DNA from: a virus
Taxonomy: Duplodnaviria > Heunggongvirae > Uroviricota > Caudoviricetes
Strand: one strand, 5' to 3'
Length of the DNA: 4,350 nt
IMG/VR virus record: IMGVR_UViG_2778261565_000010
In this document: piece by piece, positions 78 through 3,666 of the stretch
How the letters are laid out: each line of letters starts with the position of its first letter
How positions within the stretch are numbered: the first letter of the stretch is position 1
The notes under the pieces: model-generated
Told to the model about the DNA's origin: nothing
What the model saw: the letters and a program-made list of their open reading frames with translations, nothing else
The model's database searches: none
Translations under genes and position numbers: made by a program

Positions 78-556
78 GAATCCACCCATAACACTGTTTT
101 TGGTTTTAACTGTTCCGCGTGCGCTCAGCCGCATTCACCACATCACAAAATTCACTTTAAAAAGGGCGGCAGAGCAGTCACGGAGTAAAACTGATACCGC
201 CAAACGTCACCAGAAAATTGATAACAGAGGGCGTTGCAGCGGGGTTGTCACTTAAGCGTATGGTCAACCTGACAACCCGGTGTCCTCAACGGGGAAGGAA
301 TAACCCCGCCATACTTACCGCCGCGCCATTTCGCGTAGTGCCACAACCGGAAGCGCACGGTCGACGAAAATTTAACGACAGGCTATCTATGAACCAGCTA
401 CCTCGCCGTGCGCTTTCGCGTTATGGTCTGACTTTTCATGGAAATATCCTTTCAGTAAACTGTCAGTGCCGGATGCTCACCCGTGTCCGGCGCACGCACT
501 CCACCTCACCCGTGGAGAACTCCTTAATTACCAACCTTAGCTTCGTTGGTTAGCTA

Positions 557-775
557 TTAACGCTGGTATGTAATCATTCTGGCAATGCTTAATGCCGCTG
601 CTTTTTCCAGCCTGGTGATATCCTGCTCCAGAGCGGACAGATTTTCAGCCTGCTTAGCCTTGGCTTCATTGGCCCATTTCAGATCCTGCGCTGCATTAAT
701 TTTCTGGCGCATCCACTCATAAAGTTCATCATCGGTATAGTCTGGCGCGATGATGACAGGTTCTCGTTTCTGCAT
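557..775 (-). CDS. Hypothetical small protein (72 aa), predicted coiled-coil, function unknown
   Basis: ATG at 775..773 preceded by AAGGAG (complement of 781-786) with 5-nt spacing; TAA stop at 559..557; 72-aa ORF MQKREPVIIAPDYTDDELYEWMRQ... with a helical heptad-like Ala/Lys/Glu-rich C-terminal half. No family recognised. Confidence 0.55.
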   Translation of the reverse strand: MQKREPVIIAPDYTDDELYEWMRQKINAAQDLKWANEAKAKQAENLSALEQDITRLEKAAALSIARMITYQR

Positions 776-1068: not shown

Positions 1069-1115
1069 AGGCGCATACCGCTTAGTTACCGCTCTGATAA
1101 TTCTTACCTGTCCGG

Positions 1116-1149
1116 CAATGGCGCTGATGTCAATATAAAGCGCCATTGC
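1116..1149 (+). terminator. Perfect 11-bp inverted repeat (GCAATGGCGCT / AGCGCCATTGC) with a 12-nt loop, followed on the plus strand by TGCTTCTTTGCC; possible intrinsic terminator for the zinc-ribbon gene, or a protein-binding palindrome
   Basis: Arms at 1116-1126 and 1139-1149 are exact reverse complements; downstream plus-strand tract is pyrimidine/T-rich but not a clean U-run. Confidence 0.3.
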
Positions 1150-1283
1150 TGCTTCTTTGCCGATCCCGGGATGCCTTCCATTCTGATGTTTGACTTCGCC
1201 CACTGAGAAATCCTCTGTTTCCCCTTAACGCCGGGTAGCGGAACTGTTTGCTGAGAACACCGTGCGGTGTCTTGATGGGTGGT

Positions 1284-1312
1284 AATTTAGTTTTCTCATG
1301 AATGTTGGTCAA
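1284..1312 (-). promoter_or_regulatory. Putative leftward (PL-like) sigma70 promoter: -35 TTGACC (1312..1307), 17-bp spacer, -10 TAAATT (1289..1284)
   Basis: Read on the minus strand: TTGACC-aacattcatgagaaaac-TAAATT. 5/6 match to the -35 consensus, 4/6 to the -10, ideal spacer. An operator-like motif copy overlaps the spacer and -10. Confidence 0.3.
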
Positions 1313-1335
1313 GCATTTTTAATGAGAAAACTCAA
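1286..1335. promoter_or_regulatory. Operator-like pair (OL-like): exact copy of TGAGAAAACTCAA at 1323-1335 and a 12/13 inverted copy (TGAGAAAACTAAA on the minus strand) at 1286-1298
   Basis: Direct sequence identity with the motif at 1856-1868; the motif is near-palindromic (TTGAG-AAAA-CTCAA). The copies bracket the predicted leftward promoter. Confidence 0.4.
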
Positions 1336-1350
1336 TATTTAATGCAAAAT

Positions 1351-1379
1351 AAAGCCAATACATTGAAATGTAAGGCTTT
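1351..1379 (-). terminator. Possible weak intrinsic terminator downstream of the repressor gene (AT-rich bulged hairpin AAAGCC...GGCTTT, followed on the minus strand by ATTTTGCATT)
   Basis: AAAGCC (1351-1356) pairs with GGCTTT (1374-1379), inner ACATT/AATGT pairing; T-rich tract follows on the minus strand. Stem is short and AT-rich, so weak. Confidence 0.25.
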
Positions 1380-1396
1380 AAAATTTGTGAAGGGGG

Positions 1397-1804
1397 TTAC
1401 TGATGTTTGTTACGTTTGCGAGCTTCTAGTAGCTCGGTGAATAGGCGATTAAAATTCTCAACGCGGGCACGGAGTTCGCTGATTTGTGCTTGCTGCTCTG
1501 ATTTTGGAAGTGCGCGATACAATCGCAACATCTCCAACTCATCTTCCGATAAGTCTAAGGCGCTGTTGAGTGCTACTGGTGGATCTGGTGTTTTATCCTC
1601 GTCACCAAACAGTATCCAAGTTGGTGAACATTGCAATACCTCAGCCAGGCGATGCAAATTTTGCCCGCGCGGGGCTGTATGGTCGCTTTCCCATAGTGAA
1701 ATTGATGAGCCAGATACGCCAGCGGCTTTGCTTAAATCGTTTTGACTTAAACCAACCTGTTTGCGTCTTTCTCTAATTCGTTGACCTAAAGTTTTCTCGT
1801 TCAT
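1397..1804 (-). CDS. dicA: Prophage immunity repressor, DicA-like (XRE-family HTH N-terminal domain, C-terminal oligomerisation region), 135 aa
   Basis: 135-aa ORF with ATG at 1804..1802 and TAA at 1399..1397. HTH_XRE signature (GLSQNDLSKAAGVSGSSISLWE) and a LQCSPTWILFGDEDK motif I recall from E. coli DicA, same length as DicA. Divergent from a Cro-like gene. The symbol denotes the family; orthology is unverified. Confidence 0.9.
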   Translation of the reverse strand: MNEKTLGQRIRERRKQVGLSQNDLSKAAGVSGSSISLWESDHTAPRGQNLHRLAEVLQCSPTWILFGDEDKTPDPPVALNSALDLSEDELEMLRLYRALPKSEQQAQISELRARVENFNRLFTELLEARKRNKHQ

Positions 1805-1825
1805 ATTTAGATATCTTAATAACCC

Positions 1826-1855
1826 TTGACTTGAGATTCCTTGAATGATTACTAT
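1826..1855 (+). promoter_or_regulatory. Putative rightward (PR-like) sigma70 promoter for the Cro-like operon: -35 TTGACT (1826-1831), 18-bp spacer, -10 TACTAT (1850-1855)
   Basis: Consensus-like hexamers in the 77-bp divergent intergenic region; the operator-like palindrome sits immediately downstream, over the expected transcription start. Confidence 0.4.
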
Positions 1856-1868
1856 TGAGAAAACTCAA
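1856..1868. promoter_or_regulatory. Operator-like palindrome (OR-like) TTGAG-AAAA-CTCAA between the PR-like -10 and the Cro-like gene's Shine-Dalgarno
   Basis: Exact 13-bp identity (TGAGAAAACTCAA) with 1323-1335; 5-bp inverted arms; position over the predicted +1 is typical of a repressor operator. Confidence 0.45.
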
Positions 1869-1881
1869 CTTTGGAGGGGTG

Positions 1882-2109
1882 ATGTTTAAATCAGACGTAA
1901 TTAATTTTTATGGGACGAAAGCCAAAGTAGCGAAAGCTGCTGGTGTTGATCCATCTGCTGTTTCTCAATGGGGGGAACTGGTTCCTGAAGGTCGCGCGAT
2001 GCGCCTGCAAGAGGCATCCGGCGGGGAACTTCAGTACGACCCCAAAGTTTATGACGAATATCGTAAGGCAAAGCGGGCGGGGCGGTTGAACAATGAAAAT
2101 CACCCCTGA
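1882..2109 (+). CDS. Cro-like small HTH regulator of the DicC/YdaS family (75 aa)
   Basis: ATG at 1882 preceded by GGAGGGG (1873-1879); the ORF track's TTG at 1855 is probably not the start. TGA at 2107-2109. Motif AKVAKAAGVDPSAVSQWGELVPEGRAMRLQEASGGEL matches the Cro-like YdaS/DicC pattern as I recall it; divergent from the repressor. Confidence 0.8.
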   Translation: MFKSDVINFYGTKAKVAKAAGVDPSAVSQWGELVPEGRAMRLQEASGGELQYDPKVYDEYRKAKRAGRLNNENHP

Positions 2110-2644
2110 ACAGGTTTGTGAGGCTCTGGATGCCTGGGTATGTCGACCAGGAATGACACAGGAGCAAGCGACGATATTAATCACGGAAGCATTCTGGGCT
2201 CTGAAAGAACGCCCGAACATCGATGTTCAACGCGTCACGTTTAATGATGGCGAGGTTGATCAACGGGCGCTGGGCGTTAACCGGGTGAAGATATTCGAAC
2301 GCTGGAAAGCTATCGACACCAGGGATAAGCGGAAAAAATTCACGGCGCTGATTCCGGCAATTATGGAGGCTATCCGAATTAGTGATTTCAGGTTGTATCG
2401 TGAGATCAGTGATGGAAAAAGCATTACGTACATGATCGCCGGATTAAACAAAGAATATGGCGATGTGGTGGAGTCCGGGCTGCTTTTTGCGGATCCAGCT
2501 GTTGTGGAACGTGAGACTGACGAGCTTATAGAAAAAGCTATTGCTTTCAAGCATGCGTATCGTCAGCAATATCAATATTACTTTGCAGATAAACAAATGT
2601 CTGCCAGGGGTTTGTATGAGTATCGATGCACTACGATGGGCTAA
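2093..2644 (+). CDS. YdaT-like protein (functional CII analogue in DicA/YdaS-type switches), 183 aa
   Basis: ATG at 2093 overlaps the Cro-like gene's 3' end by 17 nt (coupled translation likely); TAA at 2642-2644. Assignment rests mainly on synteny (the gene following the Cro-like gene) and size; I cannot confirm sequence homology from memory. Confidence 0.65.
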   Translation: MKITPEQVCEALDAWVCRPGMTQEQATILITEAFWALKERPNIDVQRVTFNDGEVDQRALGVNRVKIFERWKAIDTRDKRKKFTALIPAIMEAIRISDFRLYREISDGKSITYMIAGLNKEYGDVVESGLLFADPAVVERETDELIEKAIAFKHAYRQQYQYYFADKQMSARGLYEYRCTTMG

Positions 2645-3128
2645 AAAGGTGAAAACCGGCAGTTCATCCAGTAAGTCTGTATTGACCTGGCTTGCTGATA
2701 TGTGCGGTGCCGATTTGTGTGCATACCCGTCTGTATCTGCACTGGCAGAAGTAACGGAACTAAACAAAAAGACTGTGCAGGACAGCTTACGACACCTGAT
2801 GGAGATTGGGTTAATTGTTGATACCGGTGAGAGAAAAGGCAGAACAAAGCAAATTGTGGTGTACCGACTTATCGGTGTAGAAGAAAGTGTTGCCGAGCCT
2901 GAATACACCCAAAAACGGGAGTCTTTAAAGGTGGGTAAAATTGGTGCTGTTAATAAAAACAGTACCGAAAATGGTTATGTTTCAGCACAAAACAGACCCA
3001 AAAACGGAACTCTTAGCTGCATGGAAAATAACCAAAGACACCCAAATTTTCCATCAAAGACACCCAAAAACGGATCACGGAACCCAAAGGAACCCAAAGG
3101 AACCCAAAGATCTAAACCCCACACATAA
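2616..3128 (+). CDS. Replication initiator (O-like), N-terminal HTH DNA-binding part; frame ends at TAA 3126-3128 just after the tandem repeats, probably truncated by a frameshift
   Basis: ATG at 2616 with AGGGG 5 nt upstream (the ORF track starts at TTG 2541); overlaps the preceding gene by 29 nt. N-terminus (LRWAKKVKTGSSSSKSVLTWLADMCGADLCAYPSVSALAEVTELNKKTVQDSLRHLMEIGLI) resembles winged-HTH domains of phage replication initiators. Iteron-like repeats lie in its 3' third. Confidence 0.7.
   Translation: MSIDALRWAKKVKTGSSSSKSVLTWLADMCGADLCAYPSVSALAEVTELNKKTVQDSLRHLMEIGLIVDTGERKGRTKQIVVYRLIGVEESVAEPEYTQKRESLKVGKIGAVNKNSTENGYVSAQNRPKNGTLSCMENNQRHPNFPSKTPKNGSRNPKEPKGTQRSKPHT
2907..3108. repeat. 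Iteron-like array: three copies of ACCCAAAAACGG (2907-2918, 2996-3007, 3062-3073) plus ACCCAAA at 3040-3046 and in each of the three tandem units; candidate replication origin inside the initiator gene
   Basis: Seven ACCCAAA cores; the last five start at 3040, 3062, 3082, 3092 and 3102 (spacings 22, 20, 10, 10 bp, roughly helical-turn multiples). Analogous to ori-lambda iterons inside gene O. Confidence 0.5.
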
Positions 3129-3666
3129 CGCACGCGAGAGTGCTCCGACCAGTGAGCAGGAAGTTTTGTCGTTACAGGCAGCACCCCTTGTATTCCTGGA
3201 TGGCCTGAGCGAACCCATCGGAAAATTTCCGATGACCGATAGCTGGTATCCGTCACGGGATTTTCGACGACGGGCTGCGTTGTGGGGGATGGCTTTGCCG
3301 GAGACAGAATTTACACCTGCTGAACTTGCCGCCTTCCGGGACTACTGGGCAGCGGAGGGGAAAGTGTTTACGCAGATTCAGTGGGAGCAGAAATTCGCCC
3401 GTCACGTAAATCACGTCAGGGCGCAGGTTAAACCAGTCAGCAAGGGGGTAAACCATGCAGCAGCACCAGGTGGCACCGCATCACGGGCAGTTCAGGAAAT
3501 TCGGGCAGCACGTGAGCAGTGGGAACGTGAAAACGGATTTATCAGCGACGGAAACGGTCTGGAAGCTGTGGGAACTCATGGGGGAGGTTTATTCGAACCG
3601 CTGGACCCAGAAGAACGGGGCCGCACCTTCGAAGCTCTGGATTGCACAGATTGGCGCGATGACTGA
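2941..3666 (+). CDS. DnaT-like ssDNA-binding domain ORF; probably the C-terminal part of the replication initiator displaced into the +1 frame (ORF-track boundaries; no credible independent start)
   Basis: Frame open from 2941 to TGA 3664-3666. Segment GKFPMTDSWYPSRDFRRRAALWGMALPETEFTPAELAAFRDYWAAEGKVFTQIQWEQKFARH closely resembles the C-terminal domain of E. coli primosomal protein DnaT as I recall it. High G at codon position 1 through 3455-3666 supports coding in this frame. Confidence 0.6.
   Translation: MVLLIKTVPKMVMFQHKTDPKTELLAAWKITKDTQIFHQRHPKTDHGTQRNPKEPKDLNPTHNARESAPTSEQEVLSLQAAPLVFLDGLSEPIGKFPMTDSWYPSRDFRRRAALWGMALPETEFTPAELAAFRDYWAAEGKVFTQIQWEQKFARHVNHVRAQVKPVSKGVNHAAAPGGTASRAVQEIRAAREQWERENGFISDGNGLEAVGTHGGGLFEPLDPEERGRTFEALDCTDWRDD
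3079..3108. repeat. Perfect tandem repeat, 3 copies of the 10-bp unit GGAACCCAAA
   Basis: Directly visible: ggaacccaaa ggaacccaaa ggaacccaaa at 3079-3088, 3089-3098 and 3099-3108. The unit length is not a multiple of 3, so copy number sets the reading frame. Confidence 0.95.

Follow-up and report, generated by a model that had tools for sequence, protein, structure and literature searches.

The 13-base motif TGAGAAAACTCAA, which recurs at the two early promoters on either side of a repressor gene, is very likely the operator of this repressor and of the neighbouring Cro-like protein. We analysed a 4,350-nucleotide stretch of tailed-phage (Caudoviricetes) DNA, hereafter the window, and we hold with good confidence that it contains the immunity switch of an E. 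coli lambdoid prophage of the Qin/PPompW type, in which the DicA-family repressor and the Cro-like protein would both use these palindromes. What the present analysis established is where the sites lie, which registers they keep, how far they are conserved and that they co-vary with the recognition helix; we infer that these two particular proteins bind them, and likewise the sequence of site filling and any cooperativity. The layout itself is not new, as it has already been described as the dicCp/dicBp arrangement of Qin, and operator control was, as later papers cite it, proposed for Qin already in 1988.

A motif search of the window located exact copies of TGAGAAAACTCAA on the plus strand at 1323-1335 and 1856-1868, together with an inverted copy on the minus strand at 1286-1298 that contained one mismatch (12 of 13 bases). 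A separate repeat listing of the window gave the same relations among the copies (families D3, I1 and I3), and the three near-palindromes thus lie where the preliminary description had placed them. The operator unit can be written as a 14-mer, TTGAG-N4-CTCAA, in which two 5-bp arms enclose a 4-bp centre, and the features discussed below are collected in Table 1. In particular, the Oc-like operator covers the last base of the -10 element and the expected transcription start of the rightward promoter, and the right copy of the 13-base motif ends 4 nt before a GGAGG ribosome-binding site (1873-1877), with the ATG of the Cro-like gene at 1882. The OL2-like operator lies upstream of the leftward -35 element (1307-1312), at a distance of 9 nt when counted as a 14-mer and 10 nt as a 13-mer, and the OL1-like operator extends over the 3' end of the spacer into the leftward -10 element (1284-1289), of which it takes in the first 4 nt. 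We also found two weaker in-register sites, Oa-like and Om-like, that had been absent as full sites from the preliminary description. The Oa-like site sits 1 nt from the repressor ATG, and its addition makes the right operator three-part, with a spacing of 24-25 bp; on the left, the OL1-like and OL2-like operators were the only two clear sites and were 36 bp apart. The TTGAGA half-site at 1831-1836 had been assigned to the spacer of the rightward promoter; it is present, but it begins on the final base of the -35 element rather than lying in the spacer alone, and it forms the good arm of the Om-like site.

Table 1. Coordinates of the predicted operators, promoters, genes and RNA elements in the window.
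Feature	Position	Strand	Sequence or basis
Oc-like operator	1855-1868		TTGAGAAAACTCAA; perfect palindrome with 5-bp arms
Om-like weak site	1831-1844		TTGAGATTCCTTGA; one good arm, the other degenerate
Oa-like site	1806-1819		TTTAGATATCTTAA; weaker palindrome variant; repeat family I11
OL2-like operator	1322-1335		ATGAGAAAACTCAA
OL1-like operator	1286-1299		plus strand TTTAGTTTTCTCAT; minus strand ATGAGAAAACTAAA
Rightward early promoter (PR or dicCp equivalent)	1826-1855	+	TTGACT (1826-1831)-18-TACTAT (1850-1855)
Leftward early promoter (PL or dicBp equivalent)	1312..1284	-	TTGACC (1312..1307)-17-TAAATT (1289..1284)
Hairpin followed by AUUUUG	1345-1387	-	just 3' of the repressor stop codon
Repressor gene, DicA family	1397-1804	-	135 aa; NCBIfam PRK09706
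Cro-like gene, DicC family	1882-2109	+	NCBIfam PRK09744; Pfam P22_Cro
dicF small RNA	164-215	-	Rfam RF00039; 76.7 bits (gathering score 48)
ydfC, gene of the leftward (dicB) operon	557-775	-	RefSeq annotation of the related stretch L002
ydaT (CII-like protein)	2093-2644		

The promoter scan recovered the predicted rightward and leftward promoters at the positions proposed for them beforehand, and both were sigma-70-like, matching 9 of the 12 consensus positions. The rightward -10 element kept its positions 1, 2 and 6 across haplotypes, and its middle positions varied. The dicCp promoter of K-12 reads TTGACT-17-TATCTT, and the K-12 stretch downstream of dicA contains TTGACC-17-TAATCT, with the same -35 hexamer and spacing as in the window; judging by its sequence, we take the latter to be dicBp. 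The candidate promoter of the dicB operon in the window lies directly downstream of the repressor gene and is homologous to this K-12 stretch. The hairpin behind the repressor stop codon (-12.3 kcal/mol, z -3.7) was conserved among haplotypes of the window's class and is probably a terminator, keeping the transcript of the repressor gene apart from the leftward promoter. The inverted repeat formed by the two left sites was likewise considered as an intrinsic terminator and rejected; its stem is A+U-rich and is followed by AAAUUACCA, and the terminator scan did not report it.

The repressor matched the NCBIfam DicA model over its full length (residues 1-135) with 238.3 bits against a cut-off of 101 and was 56% identical to K-12 DicA. 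Its top Pfam match was HTH_3 (E 1.2e-16), and its N-terminal domain matched P22 C2 structures in the PDB (1adr, E 2e-15; 2r1j, E 8e-15). All Pfam matches of the 135-residue protein were to helix-turn-helix families, with no C-terminal domain of the LexA/S24 type or the lambda CI type, and DicA is likewise without a LexA-like C-terminal domain (PMC10448788). Since a LexA/S24-type domain is missing, induction would be expected to proceed via an antirepressor and not via RecA. The last 66 residues of the repressor matched no PDB sequence even at E 10, and single-sequence structure prediction (mean pLDDT 63, too poor for a fold search) gave two helices of low confidence in this part. The Cro-like protein, whose gene is divergent from the repressor gene, matched Pfam P22_Cro (E 1.1e-17) and the NCBIfam DicC model (167.6 bits, cut-off 130) and was 71% identical to K-12 DicC. 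The dicF RNA is a downstream product of the leftward operon. Additionally, a related 19.1-kb E. coli prophage stretch (L002), for which an exact match was demonstrated over window positions 1100-2200 only, carries dicB and ydfD further left according to its RefSeq annotation and encodes a Rem antirepressor that is 93% identical to that of K-12 Qin.

The sequence TTGAGNNNNCTCAA, with at most two mismatches, occurs nine times in L002, a total at chance level (9.8 expected), and five of these matches fall inside the 583-bp region studied here. In the window's class, the sites were nearly invariant across 30 haplotypes upstream and 64 downstream, which are kin and hence not independent events, and the short spacers touching the sites were hypervariable. 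As an example, the OL1-like operator was nearly invariant in the 64 haplotypes, with 7 nt upstream and 6 nt downstream of it hypervariable, and the Oa-like site was invariant in 30 of 30 upstream haplotypes. A sliding 14-nt window test of conservation within the class did not reach significance for either left site (0.23 and 0.37), since the terminator hairpin and the leader show the same degree of conservation; the case for conservation rests on the contrast with the neighbouring spacers and on a between-class comparison.

For the latter, we compared 14 clusters of DicA-family loci and found the registers of the sites relative to the promoters to be fixed. The distance from the end of Oc to the repressor ATG was 50-53 nt in 14 of 14 clusters, and the start-to-start distance from OL2 to OL1 was 34-37 nt in 13 of them, the remaining locus being without a curated OL1 string. 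A 14-mer in the Om register abuts the -35 element in every cluster (GTAGAGAAACCTAA in PPompW), the Oa position holds TTAGCATTAGCTAA in K-12 and TTAGAATTACCTAA in PPompW, and the K-12, PPompW and Stenotrophomonas-phage loci each have their own palindrome in the OL1 register. OL2 lay 36 to 84 nt from the repressor stop codon, depending on the cluster, with no sign of a constrained spacing. The sequence of the arms varied with the recognition helix of the repressor. In the GVS(G/D)SSISL class, to which the window belongs, 15 of 18 arms contained TGAG, and the other three were the arm that doubles as the -10 element; in the KISHVSVSQ and (K/N)VAHVTISQ classes (K-12, PPompW and the Stenotrophomonas phage), TGAG was found in 0 of 42 arms and TTAG in 35. 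The Stenotrophomonas phage, with a repressor 50% identical and otherwise dissimilar flanks, combines the PPompW helix with PPompW-like sites. The half-sites of the Citrobacter class (GISHATISL) were degenerate and mixed, so the relation between helix and operator is not clean. A search among the family loci for mosaics of repressor and Cro helix types found none; the two types are strictly linked, and for this reason the comparison cannot assign a site to either protein.

Upon comparison with K-12 Qin, the closest experimentally studied arrangement, we found the same order and orientation of dicC, dicA and the dicB operon (ydfC, dicF, dicB), proteins of the same NCBIfam families, an identical leftward -35 hexamer and 17-nt spacer, and, at each of the two promoters, 14-bp palindromes whose registers agree. 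One K-12 palindrome (TTAGT/C-N4-ACTAA) lies between the dicC -10 element and the ribosome-binding site; of those on the left, one ends at the fourth base of TAATCT and the other lies 9 nt upstream of the -35 element. The two elements were similar but not identical. The K-12 recognition helix is KISHVSVSQ, compared with GVSGSSISL in the window, the repressors share 56% identity as given above, and the operator arms are TTAGT/ACTAA and TTGAG/CTCAA, respectively; given these different arms, the two elements should be heteroimmune. The window element also has a zinc-ribbon gene in place of K-12 ydfA/ydfB, and to the right of the Cro-like gene it carries ydaT and O/P-like replication genes, whereas K-12 Qin has ydfX and ydfW. 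DicA occupies the K-12 site Oc (TTGTTAGTCATAACTAACAA) in vivo, and replacing one A by C is enough to eliminate the binding (PMC3441716). The weaker K-12 sites, Om and Oa, showed no DicA binding in the same in vivo assay (PMC3441716), and their counterparts in the window, Om-like and Oa-like, may therefore be Cro-only or non-functional. The DicA and DicC literature that we found covers classes other than that of the window, the O157:H7 study having used the PPompW class, and binding and repression at both promoters are known for the K-12 and O157:H7 homologues only. The earlier proposal that the palindromes are operators for the DicA-like repressor, the Cro-like protein or both, at the promoters flanking the repressor gene, agrees with all of this comparative evidence and matches the homologous, experimentally tested Qin system.

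More distant lambdoid switches showed the same general plan. The operator sets of lambda likewise flank the repressor gene, the rightward one facing cro and the other leftward. Lambda OL and OR are about 2.4 kb apart, whereas the operator sets of the window are separated by about 530-570 bp, and the CI-type C-terminal domain of the lambda repressor is absent from the window repressor. CI octamers close a loop between OL and OR in lambda; the loop suggested beforehand for the window would take repressor tetramers or octamers as bridges, and the present evidence weighs neither for nor against it. The immC region of P22 resembles the window in its homologous repressor N-terminal domain (E 2e-15), its Cro-like protein in the P22_Cro family, its palindromic operators with an AT-rich, non-contacted centre, its three-part right operator and a further set of operators, at a leftward promoter on the other side of the repressor gene. 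In contrast, the C-terminal half of P22 C2 is unrelated to that of the window repressor, and the sites are 14 bp in the window and 18 bp in P22 in the numbering of PMC4267663. The P22 repressor binds tightest to operators with an A-tract centre, via indirect readout (PMC4267663), a preference consistent with AAAA at the centre of each of the three strong sites. In prophage CP-933P of E. coli O157:H7, too, a short repressor of non-CI type has a Cro-like gene and ydaT on its right; the intergenic operators have been footprinted, and OL-like sites accompany a PL-like promoter on the far side of the repressor operon (PMC8630535). It differs in that its repressor, PaaR2, belongs to another family than DicA, a toxin-antitoxin pair lies beside the repressor, and the 18-bp repeats follow another consensus, GTTTAGTAA; its switch proteins are PaaR2, YdaS and YdaT.

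We considered whether the repeats could be chance matches in AT-rich intergenic DNA, and the probability of this appears practically negligible. Both non-coding stretches, 1204-1396 and 1805-1881, are indeed AT-rich (39% and 34% G+C), and a scan of viral contigs for the exact 14-mer returned many unrelated contigs among the matches listed, a result that is uninformative on specificity, since a collection this large should contain any one 14-mer by chance. However, a shared word of at least 13 bases between the two stretches arose in 4 of 5000 composition-matched Markov simulations, a figure that concerns one pair and leaves the third copy uncounted. Moreover, Buttiauxella loci keep the sites despite diverged flanks and repressors that are 75-76% identical, and other classes have equivalent but different palindromes in the same registers. 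It is also scarcely credible that the sites belong to another DNA-binding protein of the region, such as YdaT, or to a host factor. YdaT of CP-933P does bind an inverted repeat, TTGATT-N6-AATCAA (PMC9986795), and in K-12 a host factor, YjdC, is able to repress targets of DicA, but the YdaT motif is represented in the window only by matches with three mismatches (four, against 2.9 expected), the sequence of the sites tracks the repressor and Cro helices family-wide, and arms of 5 bp around a 4-bp centre are the geometry of helix-turn-helix dimers of the P22/434 type, the homologues of the repressor.

The left copies might alternatively act as RNA, with the inverted repeat 1285-1302/1319-1336 forming a hairpin in read-through transcripts that serves as a terminator or processing site. 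None of 200 shuffled versions folded as well as this repeat on either strand; the minus strand gave -11.3 kcal/mol (z -3.8) and the plus strand -17.8 kcal/mol (z -4.8). Two copies of a palindromic operator will, however, always be complementary to each other. We regard this explanation as very unlikely: on the repressor-sense strand the stem lacks a following U-run, the loop would hold the -35 hexamer, the separate hairpin behind the repressor gene is better placed for termination, and the third copy, at the rightward promoter, is left unexplained. The left sites of PPompW and the Stenotrophomonas phage have asymmetric centres in direct orientation, which indicates that a long left stem is not a feature of the family. 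Somewhat less improbable, yet still unlikely, is that one regulator alone reads the sites, either the DicC-like protein, with the repressor confined to the right site, or the reverse. The direct evidence in K-12 for binding on both sides of dicA is a ChIP-seq result for DicC only. The main text of the ChIP-seq compendium paper makes no mention of DicA. K-12 DicA has been shown at Oc only, and a source cited in PMC7567609 describes its site at dicB as low-evidence and of unknown location. The sequence TTAAGATA(T/A)CTAAA, furthermore, stands at Oa in all clusters with the SAVSQW Cro helix, regardless of the repressor helix. Against this, dicBp of K-12 is repressed by DicA (PMC10448788), and strongly so, 165-fold as measured by Rem-mediated derepression, so a DicA site is needed there. 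The left sites also track the helix class of the repressor as closely as the right site does, and in lambda, P22 and CP-933P the operators are common to both proteins.

We therefore favour operators shared by the repressor and the Cro-like protein, and the following mechanism is proposed. Repressor dimers would recognise the 14-bp palindromes TTGAG-AAAA-CTCAA, with each helix-turn-helix touching one outer TGAG arm and the A-tract centre probably read indirectly. On the right, repressor bound at the Oc-like operator would cover the -10 element and the start site, and the shut-off of this promoter would silence the Cro-like gene and then ydaT and the replication genes behind it. On the left, repressor at the OL1-like operator would cover the -10 element, assisted by the OL2-like operator just upstream of the -35 element, and occupation of both would switch off the ydfC-dicF-dicB operon. 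The DicC-family protein would be expected on the same sites with a different preference, including the weaker Om-like and Oa-like sites; at those near the start of the repressor gene it would lower repressor expression and thereby create a bistable switch.

The DicA family may further be read as a heteroimmune series, in which a single rigid promoter-operator scaffold keeps all promoter distances fixed and helix positions 32-34 (G-S-S, H-V-S/T, H-A-T or H-S-T) may re-code operator positions 3-5. The short helical C-terminal domain, unrelated to that of lambda CI, may link the operator sets over about 0.5 kb, and one shared antirepressor may target what is conserved among repressors that have otherwise diverged. 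The Rem proteins of two elements are 93% identical, whereas the repressors of these elements share only 56%. As a joint reading, a heteroimmune switch series combined with a left-right C-terminal link and a common antirepressor is tentative, and we consider it doubtful. The principle is textbook lambdoid regulation, and the gain lies in annotation and in useful specificity variants, with no new mechanism. The comparison also places putative DicA sites at the K-12 dicB promoter, where PMC7567609 lists them as unlocated. For the window itself, we obtained a concrete operator sequence and five candidate sites for a DicA-type immunity class widespread in E. coli; at least 80% of its 1.1-kb core was present in 786 of 5426 complete genomes, and the class was also found in the phage records HannyBb and mEp460_ev081.

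The repeated motif at the two early promoters very probably marks operators for the repressor/Cro-like pair, as the preliminary description had proposed by analogy with lambda OL and OR, and this reading is supported by family-wide co-variation, registers shared with K-12 and published K-12 experiments. The sequence comparisons support a heteroimmune form of the DicA/DicC immunity module already described, with predicted binding to the operator consensus TTGAG-AAAA-CTCAA; what it contributes is annotation and a series of naturally occurring specificity variants.

A search with positions 1100-2200 against 5426 complete genomes revealed some match in 2824 and most of the interval in 786, and the window matches E. 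coli chromosomes. The match over 1100-2200 is exact in NZ_CP124436.1, where the element is a prophage adjoining a tRNA-Ser gene, with integrase, exonuclease, ydfD, dicB and ydfC on the left side and ydaT, O/P-like replication genes, hokD, rem and a Q-like antiterminator on the right side. The same immunity genes were found in the phage records HannyBb and mEp460_ev081. The repressor and the Cro-like protein showed sequence identities of 56% to K-12 DicA and 71% to DicC, respectively, and repressor residues 1-72 matched the solved P22 C2 DNA-binding domain (E 2e-15). Given the gene assignments in the table, the leftward promoter is the counterpart of dicBp and the rightward promoter that of dicCp.

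Table. Features of the window and the basis for each
Feature	Position	Strand	Basis
dicF	164-215	minus	Rfam, 76.7 bits
118-aa ORF	within 847-1203	minus	Annotated in PPompW phage records; no family match
Zinc-ribbon protein	868-1068	plus	RefSeq annotation; NCBIfam ECs_2282_CxxC, 56.6 bits (cut-off 37)
Leader of leftward transcript	1221-1270	minus	Sequence elements conserved in all immunity classes
Left site OL1	1286-1299		Motif search, repeat finder
Leftward promoter, TTGACC-17-TAAATT	1312..1284	minus	Promoter scan
Left site OL2	1322-1335		Motif search, repeat finder
Hairpin then AUUUUG	1345-1387	minus	-12.3 kcal/mol, z -3.7
Repressor gene	1397-1804	minus	NCBIfam DicA, 238 bits (cut-off 101)
Right site, Oa-like, TTTAGATATCTTAA	1806-1819		Position of K-12 Oa
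Rightward promoter, TTGACT-18-TACTAT	1826..1855	plus	Promoter scan
Right site, Om-like, TTGAGATTCCTTGA	1831-1844		14-mer abutting the -35
Right site, Oc-like	1855-1868		Motif search, repeat finder
Cro-like gene	1882-2109	plus	NCBIfam DicC, 167.6 bits (cut-off 130); Pfam P22_Cro match
Replication ORFs	2541-3128, 2941-3666		Different frames
Three tandem copies of 10-bp unit GAACCCAAAG	3079-3110

The 13-mer TGAGAAAACTCAA occurs exactly at 1323-1335 and 1856-1868 and, with one mismatch, on the opposite strand at 1286-1298; motif search confirmed these copies, and the repeat finder agreed on their relations (repeat families D3, I1 and I3). The motif is best described as a 14-mer in which 5-bp arms flank a 4-bp A-tract, and the arms of the Oc-like copy are perfectly palindromic. 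Across the whole window, the promoter scan returned just three sigma-70-like sites, including the two promoters previously named, and the positions read off the sequence agree.

We turned the K-12 Qin region to the orientation of the window and found that it carries its own palindromes at the equivalent places. In particular, TTAGTTATGACTAA forms part of the 20-bp Oc described in the literature, downstream of the dicC -10 and ahead of the ribosome-binding site; TTAGTCATGGCTAA ends at the fourth base of the -10 in TTGACC-17-TAATCT, TTAGCTATAGCATA lies 9 nt upstream of the -35 of the same promoter, and TTAGCATTAGCTAA lies 2 nt from the dicA ATG. The TTGAG-type 14-mers of the window occupy corresponding registers, one lying 7 nt after the leftward -35 and ending at the fourth base of the -10, another preceding that -35 by 9 nt and a third separated from the repressor start codon by 1 nt. 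When assayed in vivo by repression, DicA bound Oc, where a single A-to-C change abolished binding, and did not bind the sequence-predicted Om and Oa; at Oc it repressed dicC and stimulated dicA (PMC3441716). DicA is also a strong repressor of dicBp, an effect relieved by the Qin protein Rem, and the dicA-dicC and dicA-dicBp regions have both been described with lambda-like operators (PMC10448788). The DicA site at dicC was recovered again when promoters were scanned by mutation, in a paper that notes the site at dicB as low-evidence and unlocated (PMC7567609). A ChIP-seq study of K-12 DicC reported binding to either side of dicA and a palindrome with arms TT(A/C/T)G and C(G/A/T)AA (PMC11430063). 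The broad features of the proposed layout had thus been worked out before in the K-12 element.

Approximately 330 loci encoding DicA relatives were collected, and their repressors were grouped into 14 clusters. The geometry was constant: the end of the Oc-like site lay 50-53 nt from the repressor ATG in 14/14 clusters, and the start-to-start spacing of the two left sites was 34-37 nt in each of the 13 clusters with both curated sites located. The distance from the repressor stop codon to the first left site was variable (36 to 84 nt). Site sequence tracked the repressor recognition helix. With the helix GVS(G/D)SSISL (the window class and two Buttiauxella loci, repressors 75-76% identical), 15 of 18 half-sites carried TGAG, and the remaining three were the half-site doubling as the -10. 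With KISHVSVSQ or (K/N)VAHVTISQ (K-12, a Citrobacter locus, PPompW and relatives, and a Stenotrophomonas phage), none of 42 half-sites carried TGAG and 35 carried TTAG. In the Stenotrophomonas phage, the repressor shares only 50% identity with that of the window and the flanks differ; this repressor has the PPompW helix, and the sites at all positions are PPompW-like. One locus with the helix GVSHSTISL had the site GTGAG-TTTT-CTCAC. The relation is not perfectly clean, because half-sites are mixed (TTAAG/TTGAG/TTGAT) in a Citrobacter class with the helix GISHATISL.

Two further right-side sites had been missed. The Oa-like site was invariant in 30/30 upstream haplotypes. The Om-like site has a single good arm, which is the TTGAGA reported as a half-site, and a 14-mer occupies this place in every cluster. 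The right operator is thus tripartite, with centre-to-centre distances of 24 and 25 bp. The variant TTAAGATA(T/A)CTAAA at Oa was common to all clusters with the Cro helix SAVSQW, whatever the repressor helix; it occurs in the window and at loci L094, L101, L102 and L106, in which repressor helices and main operators differ. This hints that the site beside the repressor ATG may be Cro-preferred, which we regard as a lead. In the PPompW class, the Oa position follows the repressor instead, and a search for mosaics among the clusters found repressor and Cro types never unlinked. Additionally, the repressor ATG has no ribosome-binding site (TATCTAAAT-ATG on the coding strand, 1805-1820), likewise in all classes, and its transcript may lack a leader, a situation reported for lambda cI and paaR2.

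Within the class of the window, 151 loci gave 30 haplotypes upstream and 64 downstream, which are related to one another. The sites were nearly invariant among them, and the most variable positions of the region were the stretches touching the sites: 3-4 nt flanking the right site at each end, the 9-nt gap separating OL2 from the leftward -35, the 7-nt gap from that -35 to OL1, and the first 6 nt beyond the leftward -10. The rightward -10 kept positions 1, 2 and 6 and varied in the middle, as expected for a working -10. In a sliding-window conservation test, the left sites were not significant because the hairpin after the repressor gene and the leader were equally conserved.

In the scheme rated most likely, a helix-turn-helix dimer would act by simple occlusion at the operators of both early promoters, and the Cro-like protein would turn down the repressor gene through these same sites; a less likely alternative is that only one of the two regulators binds them. 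Chance repeats are excluded by simulations and by the fixed registers across clusters. Composition-matched simulations gave the two non-coding stretches a common word of at least 13 bases in 4 of 5000 runs, so the repeat exceeds chance; five of nine degenerate matches to TTGAGNNNNCTCAA in 19.1 kb of a related prophage stretch, identical to the window over 1100-2200, fall inside the 583 bp spanned by the copies, the total of nine being at chance level. The two left copies fold well as an RNA hairpin, but this would lack a U-run and place the -35 in its loop, its stem is not kept in other classes, and the right copy would be left unexplained. A YdaT-type site was not above chance.

Under the operator reading, the AAAA centres of the three strong sites fit, by analogy, the homologous P22 repressor, which makes no contact with the central operator bases and has its highest affinity for A-tract centres (PMC4267663). 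Looping that joins the two sets of sites is conceivable but unsupported. Induction would be expected to proceed via an antirepressor and not RecA-stimulated cleavage, because a Pfam search found no LexA-like domain in the repressor, the DicA literature agrees and a related stretch carries rem. The C-terminal 66 residues of the repressor gave no solved relative in a sequence search and were predicted only as two helices, with low confidence. In the NZ_CP124436.1 prophage stretch (16198-16449, outside the window), Rem is 93% identical to K-12 Rem, whereas identity between the repressors is only 56%; a direct action of Rem on the repressor, if there is one, would be expected to involve a conserved region, for example the invariant LQCSPTWILFGDEDK stretch or the C-terminal helices.

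Other elements were also observed. The hairpin directly after the repressor stop codon is kept within the class and absent from the consensus terminator scan results; it is probably a terminator isolating the repressor transcript from the leftward promoter. The leader carries ACACCGCACGGTGT then TCTCAGC and a small stem (CGCU...GGCG), both kept in all immunity classes, with variant stems in other classes, e.g. AATCAC...GTGATT. Its consensus fold supports the second stem (CGCU...GGCG) only, with compensatory changes in two of four pairs, and the leader could be an antitermination (nut/put-like) or RNase processing site. The two ORFs at 847-1203 overlap on opposite strands, and the zinc-ribbon gene, if real, would be antisense inside the leftward early operon; ATGAGTACAATCAA at its start codon (868-881), with two mismatches to the operator pattern, is probably a chance match. 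The GAACCCAAAG copies fall within the DnaT-like/O-like replication gene. NZ_CP124436.1, identical in this stretch apart from carrying two copies, has a single intact gene of 1041 nt, and the frame is broken in the window; the replication gene is thus frameshifted by repeat copy number.
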